Shown piece after piece: positions 44,072 through 63,970 of a DNA stretch of 64,000 nt. How positions within the stretch are numbered: position 1 is the first letter of the stretch; every line of letters starts with the position of its first letter. The notes under the pieces are model-generated. The model searched no databases and had not been told where the DNA came from. It saw only the letters and a program-made list of their open reading frames with translations. The position numbers and the translations under genes are program-made. This stretch comes from Thermoplasmata archaeon (lineage in GTDB: Archaea; Thermoplasmatota; Thermoplasmata; GCA-020350865), in NCBI GenBank assembly GCA_020348445.1, contig CP070751.1, positions 4,321,723-4,385,722 on the forward strand, read 5' to 3'.

Positions 44072-44183
44072 ATTACTAGAATATTATATAATGTGCTATT
44101 ATACATTCTATCGTAATCCAAAATAAAAAATCTTACCGTAGAGTGTTTAATAATTATCAAATTAGTAGATTTACATACCAGGA

Positions 44184-44256: not shown

Positions 44257-44269
44257 TTGAGGGATTATT

Positions 44270-44878
44270 ATGAGCGTAGAGCATTTTAAAAGTAGAGTGG
44301 ATGCTCTCTCTGGAGAGCACAGTTTAAAGATACTATTTTATCTCAGGGATAGTGATTGGTCCATTGCCTTGGATATTGCACGGGAACTTCGGCTCCATCC
44401 CACAACAGTTGCGAGATATCTTACAAAGATGCACAATGCCGGGATCATATCAAAAAGACCGAAGTGCGTGAAAACTGGAAAGACTTTTGAATACAGATTA
44501 AAATCGAAAAAAATCGATCTAACTTTGGATTTAAGTGAAGAAACTGATTATAAAAGCCCTTGTTCCATTGTGGATTTGATATCAAGAATCATTGATAGAT
44601 TAGAAAAGGTTGGTTGCCCCTTCAATCAAGACATTTTCAAAGATAAAAGAGAAAGGGAAACTTTTACCCTCATCATATCTAAAAAGGGGGACGAGATCTC
44701 CACTTTGAGCAAGAAGGACAAGGAATCTTTTACAAATGCTCTTGAGAGTCTCATCAAATTCTCTGAAAAATCTTATGGTAAATCTGTCACACAGGATATT
44801 GTTCTTTCAGCATGGCGTTCAATGGAGAAAACCGCGGGCGGATTTATGCCAGAATATATTCAGGAGGTGTTAAATTGA
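44270..44878 (+). CDS. ArsR-like wHTH regulator with a C-terminal helical domain
   Basis: ALSGEHSLKILFYL..IALDIARELRLHPTTVARYLTKMHNAGII..FEYRL; stop overlaps the TTG start of the next KaiC gene. Confidence 0.82.
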   Translation: MSVEHFKSRVDALSGEHSLKILFYLRDSDWSIALDIARELRLHPTTVARYLTKMHNAGIISKRPKCVKTGKTFEYRLKSKKIDLTLDLSEETDYKSPCSIVDLISRIIDRLEKVGCPFNQDIFKDKRERETFTLIISKKGDEISTLSKKDKESFTNALESLIKFSEKSYGKSVTQDIVLSAWRSMEKTAGGFMPEYIQEVLN

Positions 44879-45570
44879 AAGTATCATCTGGAATAGAGGG
44901 AGTGGATACCCTTTCTCATGGTGGATATCCTGAAGGTGGAGTGAATCTGATTTCTGGGGTAGCTGGTTCGGCTAAGACACTATTTGCCCTACATTTTCTG
45001 TGCAAAGGCTTGGAAGATAACGAGATGGGGCTTTTAATTACACTGGAAGAGGAGAAGGAAAGCATAGAGAGGGTTATGTCTCTTATGGATATCAATTCCT
45101 CCTCCAGAAAGATCGATATAATAGACCTCGGATTGATAAGAGCAGAGAAGGCCGAGGTTGGGGAGGGAATGGTAGGTTTTTCTGATCTCAAGGATTTCTT
45201 AAGCAGCTTCTTAGCCTCTCATCCCACTAAAAGGATAGTAATAGATTCCATATCTGCCGTGGGTATATATTACAAGGAAATAGAGAAACTCAGAGAAGAG
45301 CTTTTTTCCTTTGTGAGGTTTCTGAGGGGAAATGATGTAACAACAATTCTAACATCGGAGTCTTTAGAGGGAGGCAGTCTCACCAGATTTGGAGTTGAGC
45401 AGTTCCTTGCCGACTCTTTCATTGTTCTAGGTCTTGAAGAGGTCAAAGGCGAACTTAGGAGAACCATCACAATAAGAAAAATGAGGTTCACAAGCCACGA
45501 CACAGCCAAAAGACCGTTTCTAATCACAGAAAAGGGGATAGAGGTCTTTGTCAAAGAAAAGGTCCTATAA
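44875..45570 (+). CDS. KaiC/RAD55-family (COG0467) single-domain ATPase
   Basis: SSGIEGVDTLSHGG, Walker A variant GVAGSAKT, catalytic TLEE, IVIDS, RFGVEQFLADSFI, IRKMRFTSH. TTG start at 44875 after GGAGGTG. Confidence 0.9.
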   Translation: MKVSSGIEGVDTLSHGGYPEGGVNLISGVAGSAKTLFALHFLCKGLEDNEMGLLITLEEEKESIERVMSLMDINSSSRKIDIIDLGLIRAEKAEVGEGMVGFSDLKDFLSSFLASHPTKRIVIDSISAVGIYYKEIEKLREELFSFVRFLRGNDVTTILTSESLEGGSLTRFGVEQFLADSFIVLGLEEVKGELRRTITIRKMRFTSHDTAKRPFLITEKGIEVFVKEKVL

Positions 45571-48500
45571 TAAAAAAGTAAAAAGTGGGATTTTAGGTTT
45601 CGATCCTCTAATCGAAGGGGGATTCCCAAAAGGCTCATCCATACTCCTTCAGGGCCCCACTGGCTTGGAGAAAGAGCTATTTTATATGCAATTTATAAAG
45701 GAGGGACTTGAAAATGGAGAATCGACTGTAGTTCTTCTTTCTGTAAAATCCCCAGAGAATTTAAAGGATGAGCTGTTGGATTTGGGCTTAGATGTCGAGC
45801 TCCTCCTAGAACAAAAGAGACTCATTATCATCGACTGGTGCTCTTGGAAAACTGAAAATATAGTATACATTCAGGAGGAGGGATCAATTCTCAGGTGCGC
45901 GGCAGACATAATGAACGTGAGCATAGCCCTTGGTAAGGCCCTTTCCATGATTAAGGGTGAACGCATCAGGGCAGCAGGAGATATTCTTTCAGACGCCCTT
46001 AATTCGGAGACTCTAAGGACAGTATACGAGTTTGCTAAAGGGTGCAAGGTCAAGTTCGATGAGAAAGGCGTAACTGCGCTATTTACTCTAGAAAAGGAAA
46101 TACATGATCCAGAAACAATATCAAAACTTCAAACCCCTTTCGATGGCATCATAGATATAGAGCGGGAGAAAATTGAAAATAAAGTGGTAAGAAAGATAGG
46201 AATACTCGCGATGAAAAATTCTTCTATTCCATCTCATTACGAGGATCTTAATATTGGTAAAAACGAGGTATTTATTGGAGAACTTCCCAAAAGGAAGGAT
46301 AAGACCTCGAAAGAAAAAAGTAAATCCAAGAAATCAAAATCTTCCAAAGCTTCCAAAACCCATTCTGCCCCCAAAAAATCCAAATCATCAAAGAAGTCGG
46401 ATAAGTCAAAAAAATCCAAGTCATCTAAAGAGTCGAAACCATCTAAATCACCTGAGACTTCCAAAAGCCGTCCCCCCTCTAAAAAACCAAAATCGCTTAA
46501 AACATCAAAAAAGCCAAGGTCCTCAACAAAATCTAAATCGTCCAAATCCCCTAAAAAGCCCAAATCATCCAAAGCTCGTAAATCCTCCAAATCATCTGTA
46601 TCTTCTAAGAAAACTAAACAAACAAAATCACCCGAGCCTGATCTTCTTCCAGTTACCGAAGAATCACAAGATGCGGAGCTTGAAGAAAAGGAAGTGAAAG
46701 TAGAAGAGAAGGTAGAAGAAAAACCAAAACAATCCATTTATCTTTGTGTCGAGTGTGGAGCTTTTATAGGTAAACAGGGTGAGAAATGTAGCATTTGCGG
46801 TGCCGTATTTTTCGAAGAGGAAGAAACCGAAGATGAAGAAGATGAAGGGGAAAATATCCCTGAGATCGAGAGGGAGGAAATTGACAGTCATGACCTATAC
46901 CTATGTCCAGAATGCGGAGCTCTATTATCACCTGATGCTGAAATCTGTATCAATTGCGGATCAAGTTTGGAAGAGGAGGAATCAGAAGGGGAGGAACCAG
47001 AAGACGAGTCAACATCCGAGCCTGAGAATGTGCCAGACCTATTGGATAGTGAGCCTAAGACAGAGATTTTTCTATGTCCGGAATGTGGTGCTCTATTGGG
47101 TCCAGATGCTGAAATCTGTGTAAATTGCGGATCAAGTATAAAAGATGTGGAATTCCAAGAAGAGGATATTATATCAGAACTCGAGGATGTTCTGGATTTT
47201 GTAACTCATGATAAGGAAACAGAGATTTTTTTATGTCCTGAGTGCGGGGCCTTCATAAGTTCCATGGTAAATGAATGCTCAATTTGCGGTGTCGTATTTG
47301 AAGAAGAGGAAGGCATTGAGTCAGTCGAAGAAGAGACTATCTTGAAATCTGAAGAAGTACCAGATTTCTGGTATAGAAAAGAGCATGCAATGCCCTACAT
47401 ATGCCCTTGGTGTGGGGCTTTTATCAAAGCAGGGGAGACATGGTGTGATATATGCAATGCAGAAATTGTTTCAGGAAAGCAACATGTTACAGAACCATCA
47501 GAAGAAGAGGATTTTTCACCATTATGGATCCCATCAGAGAATCTATGCCCAAAATGCGGTGCATTCAATGCCAATGATGCCCAGGGTTGTTCAGTCTGCG
47601 GTAAACAAATAAAAGAAGAAATACGAACAGTTGAAGAGGAAATCACACAACAAGAAAGCACATATGATGCAAAAATCGAGGACGAAATCGAGAATTTAAT
47701 TGCCTTACTAGAGGAATTTGATACTGAAGAAGAAGAGAGTTTGACCAGTAGCCCAAAAATAGATATTAAATATGATAGAAAAGACGCAATAGGGATCACT
47801 AATGGACTTACAAATGGCTTAAAAGCACGTACAAGTAAAGTGAGAAAGTGTTTCATAAATGGCATTACAAACGGCATAAAAACGCCAAAAAGAGGAATGA
47901 CAAATGGTCTTACCAACGGTATGATAATGGAGCTTAAAGCCCTAAGAGATGGATTCACAAACGGTAAAGGGATATCAAATGGTCTGACCAACGGTCTAAC
48001 AAATGGTCTTACTAATGGATTGAGAAGGCTGAGAAGGGGAATTACAAACGGAATCACCAACGGAAACGGAATAACCAATGGAATTGGCCCCGTCAAAGAG
48101 ACCATGGTCAAAAAGGCAAAGATTAGTAAAATTCTAGTTACCATTGGCCTTGTGATGTTGCTCTTCATCTCGCCCTTTCTAATAAGTTCATTTGTTCCTT
48201 CCCATGAGCCTCTCCAAATCGATGGTAACTTCAGCGATTGGGATAATTTTATGAGGTATTCGGATTCCCTAACAGACCAAACAAAAAACCAAGATATCAA
48301 TATAGAGGAATTCAAGGTAACTCACAATAGATGGGGTGAAATTGCATTCTATCTCAAAGTCAGGGGCACATTGCTTTCGGGTCAATATGGATTGGACTCG
48401 GTTCATATATTCATAGATGAAGACGATAACACCGAAACAGGCTACCGTATAAGGACGATTGGAGCCGATAAACTGATCTTTATTACAGGATGGAATAACA

Positions 48501-50512
48501 GCATTTTTAAAAGCAGTTATAGCGAATTCAATATTTCTCGAAGCTCCATTGATATTAACGGTTTCAATGTTTTGTATAATCTACCTGCAGCCATTGGAAA
48601 AAATCAACTGGAAACGAAGTTGTGGCTTGCCACACTAAATGAGCATCAAAATACGCCCATCAGGGTATTATTCAGTGTGAGGGATACAGCTGGTAATCAG
48701 GATCTTTCCGATATTATAGTGAACCATTGTAAGGGAGCGTTATTGATCAATGAAACGACCATCGCCCCTTTGATCATCCCCAAAGGCTCAAATGATGTAC
48801 CCATTTTAAAAATTGAATTAAGTGCAATTAATAAGGATATAACTTTTGAATCCCTTAACCTCACTAAAACAGGCACCGCTACCAACACAGATATAGGTCC
48901 CCTTTCTGTTTTTTTAGATAAAAATAATAACGATATCTTCGATATCCACGAGGATGAAAGAATTATACGGGTTTTGGGAGGGTTCATACAAAATAAGCTA
49001 AATATACAAATTGCTCAAAATCTCATAAAAGACCGAACAGAATCCATATTCATCACTTTGGACATATCTGAATCTGCGAAAGATGCAAGTACCATTGGAT
49101 TAAGAATTGCAGAGCCAAAGGATGTTGTTTTCTCCCTTGGTGTTTTGACACTTACTTCTTTTTATCGGACCAACAGCTATATAGATAAAATTGGAGACAA
49201 CATAGCCATAGACGGAGCATTTGGGGATTGGACCTCAAAACCACTTTTGAGTGATTCTTACAAAGATGTGAAACTGGGAAATCATAGTGTTGAAAATCCC
49301 AATATAGATATATTGCGCTATAACATCCAACACAACTCTTCTGCCCTGTCCTTCTTTCTAGATGTAAGCGGCACTATGTTGGGGGGAGTTTGTGTTCCTT
49401 GGAATGCCACACGCCCTCCTGAATCAAGGGAAGGTGGATTGAAGGACAGTGATGGAGACGGGATAGCAGATGAAGATGAACCTGGATTCGAACATGATTT
49501 TGACAACGATGAAGGCCTACCCAATGATCCCAATAATCCAGTAAGTCCGAATACAGGGTCTGATGGCCTCGATCACGACAGCGATGACGATGGTGTTGAG
49601 GATTGGCCCTGGGGAAACGATACAGTCCTCAAAAACCCACGAACAGGGAAGACCAAATATATTGGAGAGCCTGCTTTACCTCCTCCACTTCCCATGGTCA
49701 CAGGGGAGGATATGATATATATTTTCATTGATTCAGATGACAATCCACAAACAGGTTACTTTATCAATGAATTCATGGGGGCTGAATTCATGCTTAACAT
49801 CTCAGGAAAGGGCAATCATATAACTGGGAAATATCTAAACATTTTCAACTCCTCTAATTCTAAAAAATGGAAATGGAACCTGATGAAGGATGTTAACGCT
49901 GCCATAGATTCAAGATCTTTTGAGGCAGACGTTGCATTCGATATTCTGGGGATACCAAACAACAGCACCTTCAATATCTGGTTTTTCACAACTGATTGGC
50001 AAAATCGAGGGGAAATGTCAGATTTAAGTGTCAGTGAAACCAGAGAAAATAGAATGACAAGGGCAAAAGGTGGAGGGGGAAGCGCAGTAATAAATGAGGT
50101 ATTCCCTGATACAAATGGATGGGTTGAGCTTTACAACCCCACCAATAAAGCCGTGGATCTTACTGGTTGGTATGTCACTTGGAGTGGAGGGACATACAAC
50201 ATTCCCGCAGGAACAACCATTCAATCCAACGATTATCTTGTATTCAATATAGGAAACATTCCCTCAACCGACACAACGGGATTGTACAACCAAAAGAACC
50301 AGAAAAAGGATGAAACGAGCTTTACTAACATCCCCTTAAACTTTGGATGGGGTAGGAATCCAAGTAAGACACAGGACTGGTATATTACCTATCCTACACC
50401 AAATGGACCAAATATCATACCTGAGTTTTCTAATGTTTTTATTCCTATCATATTCATAGGAATTGTTTTTTGTTTGTTTAGATACCGCAGAAGAAAATAT
50501 CTTCTTGGGTGA
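45548..50512 (+). CDS. Giant trans-envelope protein B (1654 aa): degenerate KaiC domain, Lys/Ser-rich linker, 6 zinc ribbons, NG repeats, TM, shared extracellular module, lamin-tail domain, PEF-CTERM
   Basis: KSGILGFDPLIEGGFPKG..GPTGLEKE (broken Walker A); six CxxC-x10-CxxC units; TM ILVTIGLVMLLFISPFLISSFV; INEVFPDTNGWVELYN; IPEFSNVFIPIIFIGIVFCLFRYRRRK. TTG start overlaps the upstream gene. Confidence 0.85.
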   Translation: MSKKRSYNKKVKSGILGFDPLIEGGFPKGSSILLQGPTGLEKELFYMQFIKEGLENGESTVVLLSVKSPENLKDELLDLGLDVELLLEQKRLIIIDWCSWKTENIVYIQEEGSILRCAADIMNVSIALGKALSMIKGERIRAAGDILSDALNSETLRTVYEFAKGCKVKFDEKGVTALFTLEKEIHDPETISKLQTPFDGIIDIEREKIENKVVRKIGILAMKNSSIPSHYEDLNIGKNEVFIGELPKRKDKTSKEKSKSKKSKSSKASKTHSAPKKSKSSKKSDKSKKSKSSKESKPSKSPETSKSRPPSKKPKSLKTSKKPRSSTKSKSSKSPKKPKSSKARKSSKSSVSSKKTKQTKSPEPDLLPVTEESQDAELEEKEVKVEEKVEEKPKQSIYLCVECGAFIGKQGEKCSICGAVFFEEEETEDEEDEGENIPEIEREEIDSHDLYLCPECGALLSPDAEICINCGSSLEEEESEGEEPEDESTSEPENVPDLLDSEPKTEIFLCPECGALLGPDAEICVNCGSSIKDVEFQEEDIISELEDVLDFVTHDKETEIFLCPECGAFISSMVNECSICGVVFEEEEGIESVEEETILKSEEVPDFWYRKEHAMPYICPWCGAFIKAGETWCDICNAEIVSGKQHVTEPSEEEDFSPLWIPSENLCPKCGAFNANDAQGCSVCGKQIKEEIRTVEEEITQQESTYDAKIEDEIENLIALLEEFDTEEEESLTSSPKIDIKYDRKDAIGITNGLTNGLKARTSKVRKCFINGITNGIKTPKRGMTNGLTNGMIMELKALRDGFTNGKGISNGLTNGLTNGLTNGLRRLRRGITNGITNGNGITNGIGPVKETMVKKAKISKILVTIGLVMLLFISPFLISSFVPSHEPLQIDGNFSDWDNFMRYSDSLTDQTKNQDINIEEFKVTHNRWGEIAFYLKVRGTLLSGQYGLDSVHIFIDEDDNTETGYRIRTIGADKLIFITGWNNSIFKSSYSEFNISRSSIDINGFNVLYNLPAAIGKNQLETKLWLATLNEHQNTPIRVLFSVRDTAGNQDLSDIIVNHCKGALLINETTIAPLIIPKGSNDVPILKIELSAINKDITFESLNLTKTGTATNTDIGPLSVFLDKNNNDIFDIHEDERIIRVLGGFIQNKLNIQIAQNLIKDRTESIFITLDISESAKDASTIGLRIAEPKDVVFSLGVLTLTSFYRTNSYIDKIGDNIAIDGAFGDWTSKPLLSDSYKDVKLGNHSVENPNIDILRYNIQHNSSALSFFLDVSGTMLGGVCVPWNATRPPESREGGLKDSDGDGIADEDEPGFEHDFDNDEGLPNDPNNPVSPNTGSDGLDHDSDDDGVEDWPWGNDTVLKNPRTGKTKYIGEPALPPPLPMVTGEDMIYIFIDSDDNPQTGYFINEFMGAEFMLNISGKGNHITGKYLNIFNSSNSKKWKWNLMKDVNAAIDSRSFEADVAFDILGIPNNSTFNIWFFTTDWQNRGEMSDLSVSETRENRMTRAKGGGGSAVINEVFPDTNGWVELYNPTNKAVDLTGWYVTWSGGTYNIPAGTTIQSNDYLVFNIGNIPSTDTTGLYNQKNQKKDETSFTNIPLNFGWGRNPSKTQDWYITYPTPNGPNIIPEFSNVFIPIIFIGIVFCLFRYRRRKYLLG
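46290..46635 (+). repeat. Lys/Ser/Pro low-complexity tract in protein B
   Basis: KSKSKKSKSSKASK..KKSKSSKKSDKSKKSKSSKESKPSKSP..; about 115 aa dominated by K, S and P. Confidence 0.9.
47792..48088 (+). repeat. [LIMF][ST]NG repeat tract in protein B
   Basis: GITNGLTNGL..INGITNGI..GMTNGLTNGM..GFTNGKGISNGLTNGLTNGLTNGLRRLRRGITNGITNGNGITNGIGP. Confidence 0.95.
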
Positions 50513-50772: not shown

Positions 50773-53700
50773 ATGGAGTTAGGCTCCTTAAAAATCTTCT
50801 TGAGTATGCACGGAATCAGCCCACGGGCAGCGGAGATACTCTACAATGCTGGTTTTGATGATATTCAAAAGCTGAAGAGTGCCTCAATCCAAGAATTAAT
50901 AGAAATTTCAGGCATCGACACACAAACTGCCTTAAAAATCAGGAATGTGGTTCTTAAGACGGATTTTGACGAGAAAGAAGTAAAGGGCGAGATATTCATT
51001 TGTTCTAAATGCGGAGCCTTTGTGTCATCATCATCAAAAAAATGTGATGTTTGTGGAGCTTCAATAAAGGACTTTTTTGAAGAGGGAAAGCAAGAAGCGA
51101 AGGTAGAAGGGGAGATAAAAGGTGTAAAAGATCACACAAGGGATTTAGAAGATATCGATAATTACCTGAATATCCTGGCTGGGATATTAGAGTTAAAGCA
51201 CGGGGATAGAGCACTTACAATTAGAAAAATAGAAAAGGAATTGGACACCTTCATAGATGAACTTGAAGGGGATATACCACACGAGCTTTATTTATCTAAA
51301 TTAGATATAGAGCCCCTATTTTATTGTCCAGAATGCGGAGCATCGATTACCAAGGTGTCTGATAAATGCGAAATATGTGGATTACTTTTCGGGGAGCCAA
51401 TATTTGAACCTTTGGAATTTCCAAAGGATGATATTAGTATAAAGCAACTTTTTGAAAGGGATGTTAATAAGGCGAGCTTACTTGTGGGTATAAGCGTAGA
51501 GTTAAAGAAGGCACAGGACATACCGGAACTTTGGTACTCCAAGGGTGTAATTTTTGCAGATATGGAAGAGCATGAGCTGGCGATAAAAAGTTTTGATAGG
51601 GTCCTTGTTCTTGATAAGAATAACAGCAAGGCATGGAACGCTAAAGCCTCTTCCCTTGCTAAGCTTGGAAGGTATAATGAAGCGTCAGAATGTTTTGGAA
51701 GGGTGACAGGTCTTCTACTTCGGGCTTTCGAGACGAGGCAAAAAGATGAGGAGGAGTTGAAGATCCAGGAGGATGCTGTTTTATATGTCTGTGGTGAATG
51801 TGGTGCTTTTATCGGCGATTACGCACAAACGTGTCAAACATGCGGATCCAAGGTGATCGAGGATATCGAGAGCATCGTGTCCCAAATTCCATCGCATGAG
51901 ATAGAAGAGGAATTACCATCTGAAATTGAAGAGGAATTGGATGTCATAAGTGTGGATCAGGATATATCGACATTGGTGGATACCCAGCTAAGGGCTAAGG
52001 AACCAGCCTTGTTGATGAGCTGTCCCGAGTGTGGGGCCTTCATAGAAAAGGAGGAAAAGAAGTGTAATATATGCGGGTTGATTTTGGGGGTCCCCATCGA
52101 GGAATCACCAGAAGCACTTGAAGAATTTATTCTTGCCACGACACCCATTGGAGTGGAGATCGAGAAAACACGGCATCTGGCGAGTATCAATGCAGAATTG
52201 AAAAAGAAACCAAATGATCTGGAGCTTTGGTATTCAAAGGGTGTAATTCTAGCGGATATGGGTGAGCATGAACTCGCAATAAAATGTTTTGACAGAATTT
52301 TAACACTGGATGATAACCACAGCAAGGCATGGAACGCCAAAGCCTTTTCCCTGGCAAAACTCGGGCGGTTCAATGAGGCATCCATATGTCTTGCTAAGGT
52401 TGCTGAGCCCGTATTTGAAACATTTGACGAGATAGGTAGGTACGAGAAAGAATTATTGTTCGAGGTAAAGGAAAGATTTCAGACGTGTCTTACATGCGGG
52501 GTGCCTCTGAATTGGGATGATACAGTCTGTTACAACTGCGGAACCGCAGTTGCGGAGTTCAAAGAGGCTGTGGAGGAGGAAGCAAAGAAGGGAGTCTCAA
52601 GAGACTTCCGTAAGCGTTGGGAAAAAATATCTCAATTTGAGGAGCCCATAGATACTGATGTCCCTGTTGAGGAAACAAAAGAACCTGAGGAAATCGAGGA
52701 ATCATTTGAAGAACCGAAAGAGTTTGAGATGCCCTATGAGGAGCCTGAGGTTCCGGTTGAAGAATTTGAGGAAGAGATCGAGGCTCCATTTAAAGAACCT
52801 GAGGAGCTTGAATTACCCCATGAAGAACCCGAAGAATTAGAGATTCCATTTGAAGAGTTTGAGGCTCCAATAGAGGAACCTGAAGAAATAAAGGCCCCAT
52901 TCAAGGAACCTGAGGAGCTTGAATTACCTTATGAAGAACAAGAAGAAATAGAGGTTCCAGTTGAAGAATTTGAGGAAGAGGTCGAAGCTCCGATAGAGGA
53001 ACCTGAAGAAATAGAGGCCCCATTTGAAGAACTTGAAGAACTTGAATTACCCCATGAAGAACCTGAAGAGTTTGAAGTTCCCATTGAAGAGGCTAAAAAG
53101 GTTGAGGCCTCCTTTGAAGAACCTGAAGAGTTTAAAGTTCCCATTGAAGAGGCTGAAAAGGATGAGACTCCCTTTGAAGAACCTGAAGAGTTTGAGTTAC
53201 CAATGGAAGAACCTGATGAAGTTGAAGTTCATGAAGAAGAGCCTGTGGTATTTGAATTAGTACAAGAAGAACCAGTAGAGGTCGAAGCTCCTGTCGAAGA
53301 ACCAAAGGAGGTTGAATTACCAGTTGAAGAACCTAAAGAGGTTGAGGTTCCAGTTGAAGAATTTAAGGAAGAAATCGAAGCTCCGATAGAGGAACCGGAA
53401 GAAGTTGAGGCCCCTGTTGAAGAACCAAAAGAGATTGAAGTTCCAGTGGAAGAATTTGAGGAAGAATTCCTAATTAAAGAGCTCAACGAATTTGGGGCAT
53501 TACTTGAAGAACCAGAGGAAGTCGAGGCTCCTTTAGAGGAACCTGAGGAAGTTGAAGTTGCTTTCGAAGAACTTGAAGAGTTTGAACTTCCCAAAGAAGA
53601 ACCTGAGGAAATCGAAGTTCCATTTGAAGAACCAGAGGATATTGAGGCTCCTTTAGAGGAACTTGAGGAAGTCACAGTTCCATTAAAAGAACTAGAAGAC

Positions 53701-56700
53701 ATTGCGTTTCCTATTATAGAGCCTGAAGAAGTTGAAATTCCATTAGAAGAAATAGAAGATATTGAGGCTCCCTTAGAAGAGCTTGAGGAAGTTGAAGTTC
53801 CTGTAGAAGAACCAGAAGACATTGAGGCTCCTTTAGAGGAACCTGAGGCAGTTGAAGTTCCATTAGAAGAACTAGAAGATATTGAGGTTCGTATTGAAGA
53901 ACCAAAAGAAGTTGAAGTTCCTATAGAGGAACCAGAGGAAGTCAAGGCTCCTTTCGAAGAACTTGAAGAGTTTGAGCTTCCCAAAGAAGAACCTGAGGAA
54001 ATTGAAATTCCATTAGAAGAACTAGAAGATATTGGGGCTCCTTTAGAGGAACTAGAAGAAGTCGAGGCTCCTTTCGAAGAACTTGAAGAGTTTGAGCTTC
54101 CCAAGGAAGAACCTGAGGAAATTCCATTTGAGGAGCCCAAAGGGGTCGATACCTTATCCGAAGAGCTTGAGAAGAGGGGTGTTCACTCATGTCCAAATTG
54201 CGGATGGCCGTTCGAAGAGGGTGCCTTTGAATGCGATATCTGCGGTGCAGATGTTGAGATATTTAAAGAAGTACCATCTATAGAGGACAAAGGATTAATA
54301 AGCATAGGAGCTGAGCCCGAAACCGGGGCAAAAATATCAGGTCTTACTAATGGCCTGACCAATGGTACGAGAGCCCACAGAGGAGGGCTTGTCAATGGAA
54401 ATGGGATAACCAATGGATTTACCAACGGAATTACAAATGGTTTAACAAATGGTCTGAAAAAGGCCAGGTTGGGATTGACCAATGGAATCACAAACGGTCT
54501 TACAAATGGATTAACAAACGGTTTGACAAATGGATTAAGGGCTCTGAAGATGGGTATCACAAATGGTATCACAAACGGTAACGGAATCACAAACGGTCTT
54601 AGTGCGCAAACGGTAAAAACCACAACGAAAAAGAGCGCAAGTAGAATTGTTGTCGCATGGTTACTCATTGTGGCTTTGATATCATTTCCTTTTATTTTGA
54701 GCAATCTCAGTGAGGAATCTAAAATAGTGGAGATCGATGGTAATTTCAGAGAATGGCGTGATATCCCTGGCTATTCTGATTCATCGATGGACCAGATTTA
54801 CAATCAAGACATAAACATCGATGAGTACAAGCTGAAACTCAACAATTTAGGGGAACTCGCATTCTATCTAAGGGTGAACGGGACCATGTTAAACGGTGCT
54901 TACGGTATGGACTCAGTTAATATTTTCATAGACGAGGACGATAATTTTGATACTGGTTATAAGATATCTACATTGGGGGCCGACAAGATGATAGCTGTCT
55001 GGGGATGGGACAACATCATATATGATGGAGGTTACAGCGAGTTCAACATGTCGCACTCGCAATTGGACCTAAATGGTTTCGATATATTCTATGAGATACC
55101 AACTGCCATTGATAAGGATAAACTTGAGACGAAGTTATGGCTTTCTGTTTTAAATGTGGAATTGAATCGGCCCGTGAAGGTGCTTTTCAATGCCAGAGAT
55201 ACAGCGGGTAACGAGGATATATCGGATGTGATAATCAGTCAAATAGATGGCGCGCTTCTCATCAACGAAATAAGTATCGCGCCACTGGAAATCCCAAAAG
55301 GTGCGAACAGGTTGCCAATGTTAAAATTGGAATTGAGTGCAAATGGTGAAGATATATTGTTGAAATCCATGAACCTTACCATAACAGGCACCGTAACAAG
55401 TAATGATTTAACGGGAATTAGCATTTATCTTGACAGTAACGAAAACGGTATCTTGGATGGGACAGGAGATGAAGAAATTGCGAGGATAGACAATGGAATT
55501 GACGAAAGCAAGGTCAATGTCCCAGTTTCTTTGTCCATAATAGAGGACAAGGAAGAAACACTCTTTGTGACCATAGATGTATCCTACGAAGTACAAGATA
55601 TAAAAACCATAGGAATACGAATTGCAGAGCCTAGTGATGTCATTTTTGAGCCCGGTGTTATAACACTAATACCTGTGTATGTTACGAGCAGCTACATTGG
55701 TGATGTGGGTGATAACATAACCATCGATGGGGCATTTGCCGATTGGAAAAACCATCCCTCAAGAAGCGATGCTCACCACGATGTTAGAAATCAGGGTAAT
55801 CTAATAGAAAATCTGAACGTTGATATAGCAAACTACAATGTACAAAATGACTTTCATGCTTTATCCTTCTATCTTGATGTTGGGGGTACTATGCTTGGCG
55901 GAGTAACTGTACCCTGGAATGCAACACGTCCTTCTGAACCGATAAGAGGTGGACCAGTTGATAGTGATGGTGATGGAATACCTGATGTGGAGGAAGCCTC
56001 GGAGTTCAGACATGATTTCGACAATGACGCAGGATCCCCTGATGAACTAGATAATCCGGTGAGGCCGAATACCGGGCCAGATGGCTACGATCACGACAGT
56101 GATAACGATGGCCAGGAAGATTGGCCATGGGGTAATGATACGATCCTAAAGCAACCTAAAACAGGGAGGAAGCGATATATAGGCGAACCCCGTCCACCTC
56201 CCAAACTGCCAGTGGTCACGGGTGAAGATGTGGCTTATATTTTCATAGATGCAGATAACGATAAATCCACAGGTTATTATGTTAATGAAATATTTGGTGC
56301 AGATTTCATGCTCAATATTTCGGGGAAAGGTAACCTCATAACATCAAAATACATAAACAGATTCAATTCTACAAATATTAGAAGTTGGAAATGGAACATT
56401 ATAGGGAATTTGAGCGCTGCTATAGATTCACATGCTTTAGAGGCAAAGGCCGACTTCGATGTCCTTGATATTTTACCAAACGAAACCTTTAGTATCTGGT
56501 TTTTCACCACTGATTGGCGGGACTCATATGATTTATCTGATTACAGCCTTTCTGATACCAGAGACATTAGGGGAACCAGGGCCGGAAAGGGAAATCCCAT
56601 AATAAATGAAATTTATCCCGATACAAATGGATGGGTGGAACTGTACAATCCTACAAACAAACAATTACGTCTTACAGGATGGAGTATAACATTTAGCGGT

Positions 56701-57069
56701 GGCACCTTTAATATTCCCGCAGGCACAACGATCCAACCTGGAGGGTATCTAGTATTCTACATTGGAAACGTTCCATCAACTGATACAGTGAGGCTATACA
56801 ATGCGAAGGGTCAAAGAAAGGATGAAACATCTTTTGCCAGCATACCTTCCGGCTTTGGATGGGGTAGAAATCCAAATAAACAACAGGATTGGTATATAAC
56901 CTACCCCACACCTGGTGATATAAATGTCATACCTGAGTTCAGTGATATTCTTCTCCCTATTTTTATCATGATAATCTTCATCGTGGTAAGAATGTTGAAA
57001 AATGACGAAAAAATATTTAAAAGGATAAACCATGCAAAACTCCGATATGATAGAAACCGGTCCAGATAG
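50773..57069 (+). CDS. Giant trans-envelope protein C (2098 aa): HhH, 6 zinc ribbons, two TPR pairs, ~500-aa acidic decapeptide repeat, NG repeats, TM, shared extracellular module, lamin-tail domain, PEF-CTERM
   Basis: GISPRAAEILYNAGFDDIQKLKSASIQELIEISGID (HHH_5-like); twice LWYSKGVI.ADM.EHELAIK.FDR.L.LD.N.SKAWNAKA.SLAKLGR.NEAS; TM IVVAWLLIVALISFPFILSNL; IPEFSDILLPIFIMIIFIVVRMLK. Confidence 0.85.
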   Translation: MELGSLKIFLSMHGISPRAAEILYNAGFDDIQKLKSASIQELIEISGIDTQTALKIRNVVLKTDFDEKEVKGEIFICSKCGAFVSSSSKKCDVCGASIKDFFEEGKQEAKVEGEIKGVKDHTRDLEDIDNYLNILAGILELKHGDRALTIRKIEKELDTFIDELEGDIPHELYLSKLDIEPLFYCPECGASITKVSDKCEICGLLFGEPIFEPLEFPKDDISIKQLFERDVNKASLLVGISVELKKAQDIPELWYSKGVIFADMEEHELAIKSFDRVLVLDKNNSKAWNAKASSLAKLGRYNEASECFGRVTGLLLRAFETRQKDEEELKIQEDAVLYVCGECGAFIGDYAQTCQTCGSKVIEDIESIVSQIPSHEIEEELPSEIEEELDVISVDQDISTLVDTQLRAKEPALLMSCPECGAFIEKEEKKCNICGLILGVPIEESPEALEEFILATTPIGVEIEKTRHLASINAELKKKPNDLELWYSKGVILADMGEHELAIKCFDRILTLDDNHSKAWNAKAFSLAKLGRFNEASICLAKVAEPVFETFDEIGRYEKELLFEVKERFQTCLTCGVPLNWDDTVCYNCGTAVAEFKEAVEEEAKKGVSRDFRKRWEKISQFEEPIDTDVPVEETKEPEEIEESFEEPKEFEMPYEEPEVPVEEFEEEIEAPFKEPEELELPHEEPEELEIPFEEFEAPIEEPEEIKAPFKEPEELELPYEEQEEIEVPVEEFEEEVEAPIEEPEEIEAPFEELEELELPHEEPEEFEVPIEEAKKVEASFEEPEEFKVPIEEAEKDETPFEEPEEFELPMEEPDEVEVHEEEPVVFELVQEEPVEVEAPVEEPKEVELPVEEPKEVEVPVEEFKEEIEAPIEEPEEVEAPVEEPKEIEVPVEEFEEEFLIKELNEFGALLEEPEEVEAPLEEPEEVEVAFEELEEFELPKEEPEEIEVPFEEPEDIEAPLEELEEVTVPLKELEDIAFPIIEPEEVEIPLEEIEDIEAPLEELEEVEVPVEEPEDIEAPLEEPEAVEVPLEELEDIEVRIEEPKEVEVPIEEPEEVKAPFEELEEFELPKEEPEEIEIPLEELEDIGAPLEELEEVEAPFEELEEFELPKEEPEEIPFEEPKGVDTLSEELEKRGVHSCPNCGWPFEEGAFECDICGADVEIFKEVPSIEDKGLISIGAEPETGAKISGLTNGLTNGTRAHRGGLVNGNGITNGFTNGITNGLTNGLKKARLGLTNGITNGLTNGLTNGLTNGLRALKMGITNGITNGNGITNGLSAQTVKTTTKKSASRIVVAWLLIVALISFPFILSNLSEESKIVEIDGNFREWRDIPGYSDSSMDQIYNQDINIDEYKLKLNNLGELAFYLRVNGTMLNGAYGMDSVNIFIDEDDNFDTGYKISTLGADKMIAVWGWDNIIYDGGYSEFNMSHSQLDLNGFDIFYEIPTAIDKDKLETKLWLSVLNVELNRPVKVLFNARDTAGNEDISDVIISQIDGALLINEISIAPLEIPKGANRLPMLKLELSANGEDILLKSMNLTITGTVTSNDLTGISIYLDSNENGILDGTGDEEIARIDNGIDESKVNVPVSLSIIEDKEETLFVTIDVSYEVQDIKTIGIRIAEPSDVIFEPGVITLIPVYVTSSYIGDVGDNITIDGAFADWKNHPSRSDAHHDVRNQGNLIENLNVDIANYNVQNDFHALSFYLDVGGTMLGGVTVPWNATRPSEPIRGGPVDSDGDGIPDVEEASEFRHDFDNDAGSPDELDNPVRPNTGPDGYDHDSDNDGQEDWPWGNDTILKQPKTGRKRYIGEPRPPPKLPVVTGEDVAYIFIDADNDKSTGYYVNEIFGADFMLNISGKGNLITSKYINRFNSTNIRSWKWNIIGNLSAAIDSHALEAKADFDVLDILPNETFSIWFFTTDWRDSYDLSDYSLSDTRDIRGTRAGKGNPIINEIYPDTNGWVELYNPTNKQLRLTGWSITFSGGTFNIPAGTTIQPGGYLVFYIGNVPSTDTVRLYNAKGQRKDETSFASIPSGFGWGRNPNKQQDWYITYPTPGDINVIPEFSDILLPIFIMIIFIVVRMLKNDEKIFKRINHAKLRYDRNRSR
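52660..54140 (+). repeat. Degenerate 30-bp / 10-aa acidic tandem repeat EE(P/L)EE(I/V/F)E(A/V/L/I)P(F/L/I/V)
   Basis: Roughly 45-50 units by eye; includes near-exact higher-order duplications (about 63 nt at 53941 and 54061 differ at 2 positions). Confidence 0.92.
54340..54600 (+). repeat. [LIVF]TNG repeat tract in protein C
   Basis: GLTNGLTNGT..GLVNGNGITNGFTNGITNGLTNGL..GLTNGITNGLTNGLTNGLTNGLRALKMGITNGITNGNGITNGL. Confidence 0.95.
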
Positions 57070-58708
57070 AACCGTATCTGCAAGCGATGTGGAGAAGTAC
57101 GGTTACTGCCCATTAAGTTGGTGGCTTTCAGAACAAAATGAGAGTGAGAAGGCTGAGAACCTGAAAAGAGGTATTCATAACCACGTTCAAATTGGTAAAG
57201 ATGTGAAAAACATCAAAGTCAAAGAGAAAAGGAGCGAGGAATCTGAGCGAAGCGTAATCTGGTTCTCCTTAATCGCTATTATTATCGGCATCAATGGTGT
57301 AGCAATTGTCTACACCATCTACTCGCCTTCCCAACAAGGTGAAACGATAATGATTTTACTATCTATAATTGCTGCGATTTGGGTATTTGTGGCTGCATTT
57401 TTCTTTTATTGGGGTACGAAAATGGAAAGAGAAACAAAGCGCACTACAATGGCTATCTCTAGTCAAAGAGCCATCTCAACGAAATATAAACCTGATAGCA
57501 GCACTGATTCGGAAATAGTGATAAAAAAAAGGGTAAAAGAAGCCAAATGGAGTACCCTTTTATTTTTTATGGTTAGTGGTATTTTGGCTTTGAATGCATT
57601 ATTTATTTTATTTAGTATAGGTGAAACCAATGTTGAGTTTATAAGCAGTATATTTCTTTTCTTATCCCTGATATGGCTTTTTGGCAGCTCCTTTTTCTAT
57701 TATAATTCATTGAAAAGAGAAATTGTATCAAAAGAAAAGAAGCAAGATGAAAAAGCGATTGTAAAACCCTCATTTTCAGATTCTGAGATATCAATAGTAT
57801 TATTTGCTATTGTGGCCACTGTTTTAGCATCAAATAGCCTTGCTATATATCAAAGCCCACATACGAATATCGGCATGATAATTCTAATAATGGCTGTGTT
57901 GTGGCTGTACGGGGGATTTATTTTCTTATATAGGGCAATAAGAGCAGATGTGAAGCTAAAGTTGCTGATCAATAGACTTTTTAGGCCCGTGGATAGTATA
58001 AGAGGGAAAATAGCCACCCGAGTCAAACTCAGTCGTGAAATAGAGGTAGAGAAATTAAATTACGAGCAAATAGTAATATGGTTTGCAGCAATATCAATGG
58101 TACTAGCAATAAATGCCATTTTAATGAACTTCACAAGGAGCCTTGAAGAGGAGATATATGGTACTTTAATAGCCCACATTTTTGAGGTCGTTGCTTTACT
58201 TTGGTTAATTGGTGCATTTTTCTTCTTATATAGGGTCATGCTTCATTCTTTAACTGCATCGAAATTGAGAACAGAACACGGTATTTCTGAGGGTAAGATA
58301 GATTATGTGGATGCCCTGGATGGGCAATCAGAAATGCTAAGATCTGAGAAATACGGACTTCGGGGAAGGCCAGATTATATCCTAGATAAAAAAGGAGAAC
58401 TCATACCTGTTGAGGTAAAGACAGGCCGCATACCGCGAGGTCCTCTTTTTTCCCATATAATACAATTGGCTGCCTATTGTTTGCTTTTGGAAGAAAAAAA
58501 TAACCGCACTCCTCCGTACGGCATTATCAAATATGGCGACACTCAGCATAAAATAGAATACACAAAAGAACTGAGGGATATTCTTATTAATAAACTTGAT
58601 GAGATGAAAAAAATCATGGTAACTGGGGAAGCTCATAGAAATCATAGACGGGAAAATAAATGTAGGGGCTGCTCCAGAAGAGAAATATGTCCCGAAAGAT
58701 TGGCCTAA
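57047..58708 (+). CDS. Solo Cas4-family (RecB-like PD-(D/E)XK, 4Fe-4S) nuclease with an 8-TM insertion
   Basis: N-terminal ASDVEKYGYCPLSWW (Cys1) and RGIHNH; eight hydrophobic segments; then RGRPDY, PVEVKTG, IQLAAY and CRGCSRREIC (C-x2-C-x5-C). Start overlaps the end of protein C (57032 also possible). Confidence 0.85.
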   Translation: MIETGPDRTVSASDVEKYGYCPLSWWLSEQNESEKAENLKRGIHNHVQIGKDVKNIKVKEKRSEESERSVIWFSLIAIIIGINGVAIVYTIYSPSQQGETIMILLSIIAAIWVFVAAFFFYWGTKMERETKRTTMAISSQRAISTKYKPDSSTDSEIVIKKRVKEAKWSTLLFFMVSGILALNALFILFSIGETNVEFISSIFLFLSLIWLFGSSFFYYNSLKREIVSKEKKQDEKAIVKPSFSDSEISIVLFAIVATVLASNSLAIYQSPHTNIGMIILIMAVLWLYGGFIFLYRAIRADVKLKLLINRLFRPVDSIRGKIATRVKLSREIEVEKLNYEQIVIWFAAISMVLAINAILMNFTRSLEEEIYGTLIAHIFEVVALLWLIGAFFFLYRVMLHSLTASKLRTEHGISEGKIDYVDALDGQSEMLRSEKYGLRGRPDYILDKKGELIPVEVKTGRIPRGPLFSHIIQLAAYCLLLEEKNNRTPPYGIIKYGDTQHKIEYTKELRDILINKLDEMKKIMVTGEAHRNHRRENKCRGCSRREICPERLA

Positions 58709-59064
58709 TCCTCCTCATCTTCCTTACTTTCATCATCATTATTGATATTAGGATTCTTTTGAGCCATTAAAGAGTCAAGTTTGGTATTAATGGACTTAAT
58801 CTCTTCTCGCATTTTCAACATTTCCTCCTCAAAAGGGGTAAAGCCTCCTATAGAGAGGATTCTATGGCTAAGGAACATACCAATGAAAATCGCACCGATG
58901 AGGGCCATCAGAATTAGGGCTACCCATGTGACAATTGCCATCCTGACGAAAAAGAACACATCTGTGATATCTGGATAAAAGAAAAGGGTAAGGAATAATG
59001 CAATAATACCCAACAATATTATCCATCCTATCAATGATTTTGGAGTTTTAACCTTCAATTTCAT
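58705..59064 (-). CDS. Hypothetical two-TM protein with C-terminal coiled coil
   Basis: Two hydrophobic segments then EEEMLKMREEIKSINTKLDSL; its stop overlaps the Cas4 stop convergently, and an ATGA-type overlap links it to the upstream gene. Confidence 0.7.
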   Translation of the reverse strand: MKLKVKTPKSLIGWIILLGIIALFLTLFFYPDITDVFFFVRMAIVTWVALILMALIGAIFIGMFLSHRILSIGGFTPFEEEMLKMREEIKSINTKLDSLMAQKNPNINNDDESKEDEED

Positions 59065-59483
59065 TCCTTTCTCTCCATAATGATCTTATGGGGAAACGTT
59101 TTTTCAACTTCATGATTATCCCCAGATTTCTTGATATACATTTTCATTTCCCCATCATCATCAAACAGTCTAATAGTACCTTTGTACTCATATTCCTTTT
59201 GTTTATCCCAAACAGAGACATGTAGAAGAAAAGCTTCAAGGGATGTGCTCATGTGAGATTCATAGGTATAATTTTCTTCTAAGCTCTCATCTTTTATTCT
59301 TATTGTGATGTTTGAAAATAGACGGTCATCTATACCGCGTATGAAGATTTTCGTCTCTTCAGTCTCTTCAATATAATCAATTAAAATTGTGGGTATCCCA
59401 GATAATGGGGGTTGATTCTCTGTACATCCCGTTAGGATGAAAAGGAAAAAAACAACACCTAAACTAAGGTATTTATATGGCAT
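59061..59483 (-). CDS. Putative lipoprotein
   Basis: MPYKYLSLGVVFFLFILTG/C lipobox-like signal followed by a beta-rich soluble domain. Confidence 0.65.
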   Translation of the reverse strand: MPYKYLSLGVVFFLFILTGCTENQPPLSGIPTILIDYIEETEETKIFIRGIDDRLFSNITIRIKDESLEENYTYESHMSTSLEAFLLHVSVWDKQKEYEYKGTIRLFDDDGEMKMYIKKSGDNHEVEKTFPHKIIMERKE

Positions 59484-61611: not shown

Positions 61612-61646
61612 AAAAGGTGGCAAATGCCCACTTTTTCATTTTGCCT
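61612..61646. terminator. Possible bidirectional terminator between ndk and the convergent AlbA gene
   Basis: AAAAGGTGGC-AAAT-GCCCACTTTTT: bulged hairpin flanked by A and T runs. Confidence 0.4.
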
Positions 61647-62925
61647 CGTACTTTATTTGGGGCCCCTTCCCTATCTTTTTTACAAGACCAAATCGCATCA
61701 TTTTTTTCATGTGGAGTAGGACAGATGGTTTGGATAACCCAATAGCCTTGGAGATTTCCCCGCTTTTTTTCGGTTCCTTTAGGATCTTTAGTATCTTCAG
61801 ATCCACATGGTCCAAAAGGGTATCAAAGTCTTTTGAAAGCGTTATATCGAATCTGTGGGGTCTGCAGTCAAAATCCAATTTAAGCCAAGGGTGTTTCTTC
61901 ACCTCTGCTCTGATCATGTTAATGCCATTACCATATCTTTCAATGAATCCGGCATCAAAAAGAAGATTACATAGTGCAGGATTTCTTGGAATGTGTTCGG
62001 GATCATCCAAATCGACCCCGGGTAAAAGTCCCCCTGGATTTCTTATTACTATCCGGTTTGCGTGCAAAAACACCCTGATATCTGCCTGTATCATATAGTT
62101 GCGGTGTGCAATTGCATTTATTATGGCCTCTCTTATGGCGCGAAAAGGGTACTCCTCCACCTTTTTCCTCCTTGTGGATATGATGACCTCTGTTTTTCCT
62201 GTTTCCCTGAGGACATCTGTATAAATATCTTCTATTATTCTCCAAACTGGTCCTGCATACTCTTTACTTCCCACAGGTTCGTTATCCTCCATATATATCA
62301 ATCGGAGTTTCGACCAGGGAATGATTTCTGTTCCGTTTGTGAAAAAAAGTGCTCCTGCGTTGGTCAGCTTATCTTTTTTGGCCGCACCAATACTTCGAAG
62401 ATATCGTGTCCATTGTTTTTTATCTATCTTCCTGCCCCTGGTCTCTTCCATCCTGTCAAAGAACCATTTTATATATTCTTTTTTCGCTTGCTTAAAAGGG
62501 GCGGTGGGAGCGCTATCCCAATCAACGGTCCCCAATTCAGATGAAAGTACAAGGACTTCCTGAATTGACAATGGCCTTATTCCCGCACCAATGCGAATGT
62601 AGGCCATTCCGCCCATGGAACACAGGACATTTGATTTCTCTACCTCAATTACCAGAACCTCTTTCTTTTCTAATAAAAACTTGTTTGTGGATATCTTCGG
62701 GGAGGGAATTACGGACTGCAGGGAATTTGCGATTATATTCATTGCTTTCTTGATATCTGTTCCCACGATGGTTCCATCATCATCCACCCCAATCAGTATA
62801 TGTCCGCCCTCGGCATTGGCCAGTGCGATGATAACCTTCTGAATATCCTTTCCAGGGCTCTTTTTGAACTCTATATGTTCCGATTCACCGGCCTTAATCA
62901 GATTCAACAAATCACTGAGGTTCAT
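61636..62925 (-). CDS. Schlafen/AlbA_2 + HATPase_c_4 (RecG-C-like) + C-terminal wHTH protein
   Basis: GESEHIEFKKS..ALANAEGGHILIGVDDDG; YPFRAIREAIINAIAHRNY..IRNPGGL..PRNPALC..IERYGNGI; DLKILKIL..SGEISKAIGLSKPSVLLHMKKM. Confidence 0.9.
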   Translation of the reverse strand: MNLSDLLNLIKAGESEHIEFKKSPGKDIQKVIIALANAEGGHILIGVDDDGTIVGTDIKKAMNIIANSLQSVIPSPKISTNKFLLEKKEVLVIEVEKSNVLCSMGGMAYIRIGAGIRPLSIQEVLVLSSELGTVDWDSAPTAPFKQAKKEYIKWFFDRMEETRGRKIDKKQWTRYLRSIGAAKKDKLTNAGALFFTNGTEIIPWSKLRLIYMEDNEPVGSKEYAGPVWRIIEDIYTDVLRETGKTEVIISTRRKKVEEYPFRAIREAIINAIAHRNYMIQADIRVFLHANRIVIRNPGGLLPGVDLDDPEHIPRNPALCNLLFDAGFIERYGNGINMIRAEVKKHPWLKLDFDCRPHRFDITLSKDFDTLLDHVDLKILKILKEPKKSGEISKAIGLSKPSVLLHMKKMMRFGLVKKIGKGPQIKYEAK

Positions 62926-63439: not shown

Positions 63440-63970
63440 TTAAATCTTACAAATTTTAACTAATTCCTTAGTGATTTCGAAACAATCATCTACGGCCATT
63501 AAAAGCTCATCATGTATCGCACTTCTTGAATAATAAAGTTGAACTAATACACCTGCATCTTTTGCGGCTTCTATTGCTGGAACAAAGTCGCTGTCACCTG
63601 TCACCATTATTGCTTTTCCGATCTGTCTTCCCCAACTCATTCTGACCAGGTCAACAGCCATTAATATATCGACACGTTTTTGTACAAATTCGCCTCCGAT
63701 TCTCCCTAATTTCCCTAATCTGACCTCAAATCTTGGGAGCTTTCGCAATGTATAAATAAATCTATCCATTGCAGAAAATCTTCGTCTTTCGTCGTCTGTT
63801 GGAGGATCATGCTGATAAGGCATACAATTATAATAGTATGTTCTTAATCTTTCAGATCCTTTACATAGCTCTTCAGATAATTTTAAAAGGTCAACCCTTA
63901 CACGATTAAAATCGCTATCTAAAATCTTAGCTAGATAACCACCGTCTATTAAAACAACTGCCCTTTCCAA
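63440..63970 (-). CDS. NYN/LabA (PIN-like) domain protein
   Basis: VLIDGGYL, RTYYY, QKRVDILMAVDL, VTGDSDFVPAI..GV.V. Confidence 0.92.
   Translation of the reverse strand: MERAVVLIDGGYLAKILDSDFNRVRVDLLKLSEELCKGSERLRTYYYNCMPYQHDPPTDDERRRFSAMDRFIYTLRKLPRFEVRLGKLGRIGGEFVQKRVDILMAVDLVRMSWGRQIGKAIMVTGDSDFVPAIEAAKDAGVLVQLYYSRSAIHDELLMAVDDCFEITKELVKICKI

Follow-up and report, generated by a model that had tools for sequence, protein, structure and literature searches.

What does a Cas4 nuclease do when its domain is interrupted by membrane helices? Cas4 nucleases are known as soluble adaptation factors of CRISPR (clustered regularly interspaced short palindromic repeats) systems, or soluble "solo" enzymes. 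The question is raised by a forward-strand gene in the window (the whole 64,000-nucleotide [nt] stretch of contig CP070751.1, from a Thermoplasmata archaeon, that was analyzed), whose product carries Cas4 signature residues on both sides of an insert with eight predicted transmembrane (TM) segments. We put the probability that it is a CRISPR-independent, membrane-tethered, cytoplasm-facing DNA nuclease of the Cas4 family at roughly 0.7. A membrane-tethered nuclease had been proposed in a first-pass annotation of this DNA, and Cas4 profile matches, intact residues, eight predicted TM segments and two predicted cytoplasmic halves support that proposal.

Predicted nuclease domain and membrane insert

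The gene and its parts are as follows, with amino acid (aa) residues counted from an in-frame ATG at 57032:

57047..58708, + strand: membrane-embedded Cas4-like nuclease gene, 553 aa (open reading frame [ORF] list, translation and Cas4/PDDEXK profile matches)
57032..57226, + strand: predicted N-terminal Cas4 segment, aa 1-65, with invariant C26 and H51; aligns to the N-terminus of Cas4 8d3l
57107-57109, + strand: C26, predicted first iron-sulfur (Fe-S) cysteine, in the YGYCPLSWW motif
57182-57184, + strand: H51, in the G-x3-H motif (GIHNH)
57227..57451, + strand: TM hairpin 1, aa 66-140 (TM1 75-93, TM2 106-124); N88 and W117 invariant
57530..57745, + strand: TM hairpin 2, aa 167-238 (TM3 176-194, TM4 203-221); W215 invariant; the most divergent unit
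57761..57979, + strand: TM hairpin 3, aa 244-316 (TM5 253-271, TM6 280-298); W291, F296, F298 and Y300 invariant
58043..58276, + strand: TM hairpin 4, aa 338-415 (TM7 347-365, TM8 379-397); N361, W391 and G394 invariant
58289..58705, + strand: C-terminal Cas4/PD-(D/E)XK core, aa 420-558 (profiles, invariant residues, model confidence)
58373-58375, + strand: D448 (RPDY)
58412-58414 and 58418-58420, + strand: E461 and K463 (EVK)
58463-58477, + strand: Q478 and Y482 (QLAAY)
58661-58690, + strand: C544, C547 and C553 (C-x2-C-x5-C)

The ATG at 57032 gives a product of 558 aa (ORF 57032-58708, + strand), and an identical 553-aa database protein (P0002) begins at the second methionine, 57047, in agreement with the ORF coordinates 57047-58708 of the first-pass annotation; the choice of start affects five residues only. 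The protein is a predicted nuclease of the Cas4 family (RecB-like PD-(D/E)XK, 4Fe-4S). TIGR00372 (cas4) was matched at 86.6 bits (cut-off 65; E = 1.8e-24) in two stretches flanking the insert, and aa 432-554 were matched by PF01930 (47.4 bits, cut-off 22.7; 2.9e-12) and PF12705 (52.8 bits, cut-off 22; 6.9e-14). Many PADLOC Cas4 models match as well, and the Pfam scan (E up to 0.01) returned only PDDEXK_1/Cas_Cas4 and weak TM families, with no ComEC/Rec2 competence domain or transporter family. Conservation was scored across 33 eight-TM homologs with 33-67% identity to the window protein, among which C26, H51, D448, E461, K463, Q478, Y482, C544, C547 and C553 are all invariant. The predicted 4Fe-4S arrangement of one N-terminal and three C-terminal cysteines is that of Cas4. 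Every motif quoted in the first-pass annotation (YGYCP and GxxxH on the N-terminal side; RPDY, EVK, QLAAY and C-x2-C-x5-C on the C-terminal side) is present in the translation, and its view that the catalytic and Fe-S residues are intact is upheld by their invariance.

The Cas4 domain is interrupted once, past the helix with the conserved His, by an insert of ~350 aa (between H51 and D448). The eight TM segments listed above were called by Kyte-Doolittle hydropathy (window means 1.97-2.86). They pair into four hairpins, each with one invariant Trp (W117, W215, W291 and W391), to which N88 and N361 are added. All six pairwise Smith-Waterman scores among the hairpin units are 71-87, compared with ~27 ± 5 for shuffled sequences (z = 8.6-11.4; 500 composition-preserving shuffles, of which 0/500 attained the observed score), and profile-profile comparison of the four units with hhalign gave probabilities of 93-98% (E = 3.7e-7 to 1.2e-13). 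That a Cas4 sequence is split by four similar TM hairpins with eight helices, as first proposed, is thus backed by both methods; the first-helix motifs (IGING, LALNA, LASNS, LAINA) and second-helix motifs (IWVFVAAFFFY, IWLFGSSFFYY, LWLYGGFIFLY, LWLIGAFFFLY) on which the proposal was built are all present. Over 31 units from two-, four- and eight-TM proteins the hairpin consensus is E-x5-FA-x2-A-x2-LA-x-N ... AL-x-WL-x-GA-x2-FLY, in which the Trp hardly varies. Specific contacts between helices are suggested by the conserved positions for Trp, Gly/Ala and Asn (or a small residue).

Loops within hairpins are 8-13 aa long and hold 0-1 Lys or Arg (K/R) in the window protein, and those between hairpins are 26-51 aa long with 7-12 K/R; family means over the 33 homologs are 0.2-0.9 K/R for the short loops and 7.0-10.6 for the long ones. 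From this pattern and the positive-inside rule, a cytoplasmic location is predicted for both the N- and C-terminal parts and for the linkers that join the hairpins. The even TM count and cytoplasmic placement of both halves given in the first-pass annotation therefore agree with the eight segments and their K/R distribution.

An AlphaFold2 model (mean predicted local distance difference test score [pLDDT] 62.9) scores 82-93 over most of the nuclease core and 53-65 in the last 20 residues, and has eight long helices over the hydropathy-predicted TM stretches. Foldseek ranked Cas4 best, followed by Dna2, MGME1, AdnAB and Exo5. With VIA-align, model residues 10-558 superposed on 7mi5_A at Z = 19.2 (root mean square deviation 2.9 Å over 178 residues), and model residues 7-558 on residues 2-204 of 8d3l_I at Z = 18.2 (187/218 residues). 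The C-terminal part has only ~139 residues; therefore, at least 40 aligned residues come from the N-terminal piece. Because N-terminal residues share in the whole-chain superposition, the two pieces in the model rebuild one Cas4 domain, with the first cysteine in its Cas4 position. The earlier idea that an Fe-S staple could close across the insert is favored by the model, whose halves together superpose on whole Cas4 chains. In the sequence alignment to 8D3L, the insert falls between Cas4 residues ~59 and 103. One model helix (41-97) continues from the His motif into TM1 and another (374-415) leads from TM8 towards the first core strand; judged by these helix lengths, the active site would lie ~30-40 Å below the membrane. 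The TM part, where the model is of low confidence, matches designed helical repeats only, at Z = 9.7 or less, which is below a meaningful level for helical bundles.

Compared with structurally known CRISPR Cas4 proteins (type I-C Cas4, 8D3L; the Cas4-Cas1 fusion, 7MI4/7MI5; SSO0001, 4IC1; Pcal_0546, 4R5Q), the window protein shares the D, ExK and QxxxY residues and the cysteine spacing, and its predicted fold superposes on theirs at Z = 10-19 with ~20-25% sequence identity. However, canonical Cas4 is a compact, contiguous, soluble domain of ~160-220 aa, whereas the ~350-aa eight-TM insert would make the window protein an integral membrane protein. The nuclease domains of Dna2, AddB-AdnAB, Exo5 and MGME1 are in the same fold class (structural Z = 11.6-14.7). 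They are soluble, and mostly helicase-attached or organellar. To our knowledge, none of them has a membrane insert.

Distribution of the family and its independence of CRISPR

The nuclease family is independent of CRISPR. Canonical adaptation Cas4 is encoded with cas1-cas2 and an array, while the 5.16-Mb single-contig genome of the window had no match to Cas1 (PF01867), in a search that did return matches in control genomes. There is also no CRISPR-like array within the window, whose tandem repeats are coding repeats of giant upstream genes, and no cas gene recurs as a neighbor of the nuclease gene in 24 loci (the window and 23 related ones), so that the reported lack of cas1, cas2 and an array nearby extends well beyond the immediate surroundings. 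In a sample of 401 Thermoplasmatota genomes from 162 genera, the family profile matched 279 genomes in 119 genera (~255 at E < 1e-30; ordinary Cas4 may account for the weaker matches in f3 and f5), compared with Cas1 matches in 91. The two are distributed differently among families: the nuclease was found in 10/10 genomes of f30 and 50/53 of f23, where Cas1 was found in 0/10 and 6/53, respectively, and in only 2/48 genomes of f2, of which 22/48 matched Cas1. The sole other Cas4/PDDEXK-like match in the genome of the window is a 381-aa protein of the PD-(D/E)XK type, soluble and extended at its C-terminus by a long charged stretch (G000:C1:2531849-2532994; L002 1135-2280); its gene lies directly 3' of one that encodes a subtilisin-like protein.

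Hundreds of relatives came up in protein searches; where a source was named, it was always Thermoplasmata, Methanomassiliicoccales or a Thermoplasmatota metagenome-assembled genome. Thermoplasmatota are abundant in oceans, sediments and guts. What appears to have been kept across most of this archaeal phylum is a Cas4 catalytic domain that a repeated hairpin, specific to the family, embeds in the membrane. The relatives are auto-annotated as Cas4 ("CRISPR-associated protein Cas4"), a label that inflates CRISPR counts in Thermoplasmatota genomes.

The family exists in three forms that have common flanking nuclease motifs: an eight-TM form with four hairpins (~500-670 aa), a four-TM form with two (~325-370 aa) and a two-TM form with one (~270-295 aa). 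The window protein belongs to the largest. Shorter members (e.g., P0060, P0120 and P0157) have the same insertion point, homologous hairpins and, in common with the eight-TM protein, an N-terminal motif of the SAxDxEKYxYCPLSWW type and a C-terminal one of the AHRNHxRxxKCxxCSRRxxCPE type; in the window protein, long basic linkers of ~30-50 aa, predicted to be cytoplasmic, separate the four hairpins. Full-length matches to the eight-TM profile were found in 11 of the sampled genomes (2.8-5.2 Mb), and more divergent eight-TM forms are present at loci L009, L010 and L012. No complete form with six or more than eight TM segments was found, three-hairpin matches being truncated calls that are missing the N- or C-terminal nuclease part.

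Hairpins 1 and 4 of the eight-TM protein correspond to the two hairpins of four-TM forms (hhalign scores 70 and 97), and hairpins 2 and 3 are internal extras relative to them; between two eight-TM clades the units are positionally orthologous. Because units 1 and 4 pair with the hairpins of the shorter form and units 2 and 3 are added between them, the eight-TM form is, on these alignments, derived from a four-TM form via internal duplication. In a tree of the nuclease parts, TM number tracks lineage (7 changes versus 36.5 with shuffled labels). The eight-TM label needs 5 changes, although the well-supported branches would also allow one origin, and the divergent eight-TM group of family f26 is confounded by long branches. 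A profile of the hairpin only, searched against 1.84 billion representative proteins, recovered 75 clusters, in which no protein exceeds four hairpins. Full-length clusters are this nuclease, and short clusters resemble its fragments (many with the first-cysteine or ExK motif, some with neither). Among these representatives, the hairpin module is therefore confined to this nuclease family as far as profile matching can tell, and a look-alike search of the ESM Atlas for the hairpin outside the Cas4 clusters returned nothing >0.79. The series of one, two and four hairpins is a natural experiment on how repeat number relates to oligomeric state in membrane proteins; shorter forms may oligomerize to reach an equal helix number.

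Several variants were also observed. P0284 (635 aa), at first sight the one exception to the confinement of the hairpin to this nuclease, is an eight-TM member with two C-terminal TRAM domains past the nuclease, and P0048 (660 aa) has one; TRAM domains bind nucleic acid, which hints at handling of single-stranded nucleic acid by the cytoplasmic end. Five four-TM members from several sources (P0171, P0173, P0174, P0144 and P0148; ~297-305 aa) have called starts just 5' of the first hairpin and do not include the segment with the first cysteine and the His, reflecting either miscalled starts, a separately encoded N-terminal piece, or loss of the first Fe-S ligand. The 669-aa ORF of L012 (G162:C220) is an eight-TM member in which the linkers between hairpins are long, of low complexity and rich in Arg/Ala, and the C-terminal nuclease core holds an additional insertion of ~50 aa.

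The closest group described so far is that of the solo-Cas4 proteins, whose genes likewise lie outside CRISPR-cas loci. The Methanosarcina mazei Solo-Cas4 is reported to be a 4Fe-4S-binding, metal-dependent DNA nuclease (PMC12501428), and the described solo-Cas4 proteins are soluble (PMC5704561, PMC12501428), unlike the predicted membrane-embedded protein of the window. In the Cas4 survey of Hudaiberdiev et al. 2017 (PMC5704561), the word "membrane" occurs once, naming an unrelated neighbor, and neither Thermoplasma nor Methanomassiliicoccales is mentioned. A full-text literature search, whose coverage left out most subscription journals, yielded no description of a transmembrane Cas4; the membrane-anchored Cas4-like nuclease family is apparently undescribed. 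New here are the four-hairpin form, the one-, two- and four-hairpin series with its duplication history, the exclusivity of the module, the TRAM-fused variants and the comparison with Cas1 in the same sample of genomes.

Possible roles at the membrane

If the protein is a tethered nuclease, the short loops would point outward and the long basic loops into the cytoplasm, where both nuclease pieces would re-form one Cas4 domain. The hairpin module would then serve to anchor the enzyme and as a scaffold for packing, not as an aqueous pore for DNA. With the His-bearing helix running into TM1, and TM8 running towards the core, the active site would be held under the membrane, in a position to cut or resect DNA ends at its inner face, for example those of incoming viral, plasmid or environmental DNA. 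By analogy with SNIPE (PMC13190303), tethering might keep the enzyme off the bulk chromosome. SNIPE of Escherichia coli is a membrane-bound nuclease with DUF4041 and GIY-YIG domains that cleaves phage DNA during injection, and its membrane anchor guards host DNA from cleavage (PMC13190303). The analogy is functional only, in that both would place a nuclease at the cytoplasmic face of the membrane: SNIPE has a GIY-YIG fold and a single N-terminal TM segment instead of a PD-(D/E)XK fold with an internal eight-TM insert, its DUF4041 DNA-binding domain is absent from the window protein, and it is bacterial and patchy while the Thermoplasmatota family is archaeal and lineage-wide. No SNIPE-type model was among the PADLOC matches of the nuclease protein. 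We assign this role in cutting or resecting DNA ends, foreign ones for example, tentatively, at somewhat under even odds; were such interception true, archaea would have in this family a lineage-wide equivalent of the way in which SNIPE tells self from non-self by location.

Several observations weigh against this picture of a tethered enzyme that meets incoming DNA. Within families nearly every genome has the gene, apparently as a single copy and at stable housekeeping loci (GlmS/GlmU, L15e, FtsZ), unlike patchy defense genes. No partner gene is shared across the family: a comparison of ±5 genes around the nuclease gene in the 24 loci gave only two lineage-restricted synteny blocks and nothing common to all. 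The topology is drawn from hydropathy and the positive-inside rule alone, the convergence of the four cysteines would follow from the superposition alone, and the modeled TM bundle has a pLDDT of 50-68, which leaves the packing, the oligomeric state and the lack of a pore weakly constrained. Conservation of the hairpin Trp, Gly/Ala and Asn also suggests something more than a passive anchor.

The first of these points is the basis for the strongest alternative, in which the protein carries out membrane-anchored processing of DNA ends for the cell's own chromosome, such as resection or flap removal at sites of replication or segregation, or clearing of DNA from the division plane. Because the gene behaves as a core, vertically inherited gene and not as a patchy defense gene, we regard a housekeeping role, though in itself unlikely, as almost as likely as one against foreign DNA. 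Most families of the phylum have it in the majority of their genomes, TM number follows the nuclease tree, and the loci are stable and unrelated to defense (TPD-nuclease/GlmS/GlmU in 5-6 loci; L15e and FtsZ near L005); the fold, too, is near those of the genome-maintenance nucleases Dna2, Exo5, MGME1 and AdnAB. However, rigid embedding of a repair nuclease in the membrane has no evident reason, no repair or replication gene is consistently linked to it in the 24 loci, and the scarcity of matches in f2 suggests that the nuclease is dispensable there. If true, this would be membrane-linked DNA processing of a new kind in archaea.

Under the tethered-nuclease reading, the hairpins might also act as a switch, their rearrangement turning the nuclease on or off (a membrane-gated nuclease). 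Such a switch could work because the catalytic center and the Fe-S site are each built, in the model, from both pieces flanking the insert and are joined to it by continuous helices; candidate triggers would be the entry or fusion of a virus, translocation of DNA, altered membrane tension or potential, or oligomerization of hairpins. We consider this idea, whose extreme version is a four-hairpin conduit for DNA, doubtful.

A somewhat less probable relative of that extreme version is the pseudo-four-fold channel of the first-pass annotation, in which the hairpins or their oligomers would form a pore and the nuclease would act on emerging DNA in the manner of ComEC. One, two and four hairpins could give a constant total as tetramer, dimer and monomer, so that a pore built by oligomers is possible; a conserved Asn (or small residue) and Trp-x2-Gly in each unit imply specific helix packing, and a probably cell-surface protein bearing a lamin-tail domain (LTD) is encoded immediately upstream in four loci, with a PLD-like domain too in one. 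Yet the 152 TM columns in the alignment of the 33 homologs are 1.8% charged and 5% strongly polar (D/E/K/R/N/Q/H), at hydropathies of 2.0-2.9, leaving no hydrophilic lining for a polyanion. There is no ComEC or transporter family match in Pfam, the structural matches of the low-confidence TM model include no known channel fold, relatives have only one or two hairpins, and the LTD neighbor is limited to 4/24 loci. Because of the hydrophobicity of the TM segments, the lack of a transporter match and the existence of single-hairpin relatives, a DNA pore is improbable, and this part of the first-pass annotation is not supported.

Finally, an ordinary Cas4 of CRISPR adaptation, trimming prespacers for Cas1-Cas2 and only incidentally anchored in the membrane, would suit the best profiles (TIGR00372 and the PADLOC Cas4 models) and the public annotation. 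With no Cas1 match in the genome, an array-free window, nuclease and Cas1 oppositely distributed in several families (279 versus 91 of 401 genomes) and no recurrent cas neighbor, we give it next to no weight.

Gene neighborhood and further observations

The features immediately around the nuclease gene are as follows:

50773..57069, + strand: upstream gene for a 2098-aa protein with HhH, zinc ribbons, TPR and, near its C-terminus, an LTD (Pfam)
57013..57022, + strand: TATA-box-like element ATATTTAAAA, ~25-30 nt 5' of the ATG at 57047 and within the 3' end of the upstream gene
58705-59064, - strand: gene for a 119-aa hydrophobic, probably small membrane protein, in which the C-terminal motif FTPFEEEML-x-MR is conserved; it converges on the nuclease gene
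59061-59483, - strand: gene for a 140-aa protein, convergent downstream of the nuclease gene

The stop of the gene for the 2098-aa protein overlaps the start of the nuclease gene. An element of the TTATTTAAAA type occurs at equal spacing in the related loci L003 and L004 (L005 and L006 have comparable ones) and may be the nuclease gene's own promoter, predicting a start at 57047 and a near-leaderless mRNA. In close relatives the 2098-aa protein has orthologs encoded ahead of the nuclease gene, as at the equivalent position in L003 (50% identity), and an LTD protein occupies that position in L004. An LTD protein lies directly upstream of the nuclease gene in 4/24 loci; three of these are close relatives, and in the fourth the upstream protein is non-orthologous. 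A surface partner was therefore rejected in favor of local gene order.

Downstream, the pair of genes for the 119-aa and 140-aa proteins is syntenic with the nuclease gene in 6/24 loci from several families, with homologs in L006 at 35% (E = 6e-20) and 29% (E = 2e-7) identity, respectively; neither protein matched Pfam or PADLOC. The second synteny block has a TPD gene upstream and GlmS/GlmU downstream (5-6 loci). Surrounding genes in the window encode MetRS, ABCE1, succinyl-CoA ligase, ribosomal proteins L7Ae and L24e, and NDK. Ribosomal protein L15e and FtsZ are encoded near the nuclease gene in L005, and GlmS and GlmU in other loci.

The 2098-aa protein is one of three giant paralogs on the + strand (37387-42384, 1665 aa; 45548-50512, 1654 aa; 50773-57069, 2098 aa), each with an LTD near its C-terminus. 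Their N-terminal parts hold, in order, HhH and many zinc ribbons; a KaiC-like ATPase and zinc ribbons; and HhH, zinc ribbons and TPR. Stand-alone KaiC-like ATPases and winged-helix regulators are encoded between them (including 42464-45570). An imperfect coding tandem repeat at 52781-54116 (periods 30/60/120 nt; ~42 copies of a 30-nt unit) encodes an acidic Glu/Pro-rich stretch of the 2098-aa protein. A few kilobases downstream of the nuclease gene, a Schlafen/AlbA_2 + HATPase_c_4 + HTH protein (61636-62925, - strand), which matches PADLOC pAgo-associated models (2.4e-19), and an NYN-domain nuclease (63440-63970, - strand) may be defense-related. Elsewhere in the window, amid housekeeping genes, an AAA_14 + DUF4143 ATPase (31618-32892, + strand) is a full-length match to the PADLOC candidate PDC-S01 (2.8e-107).

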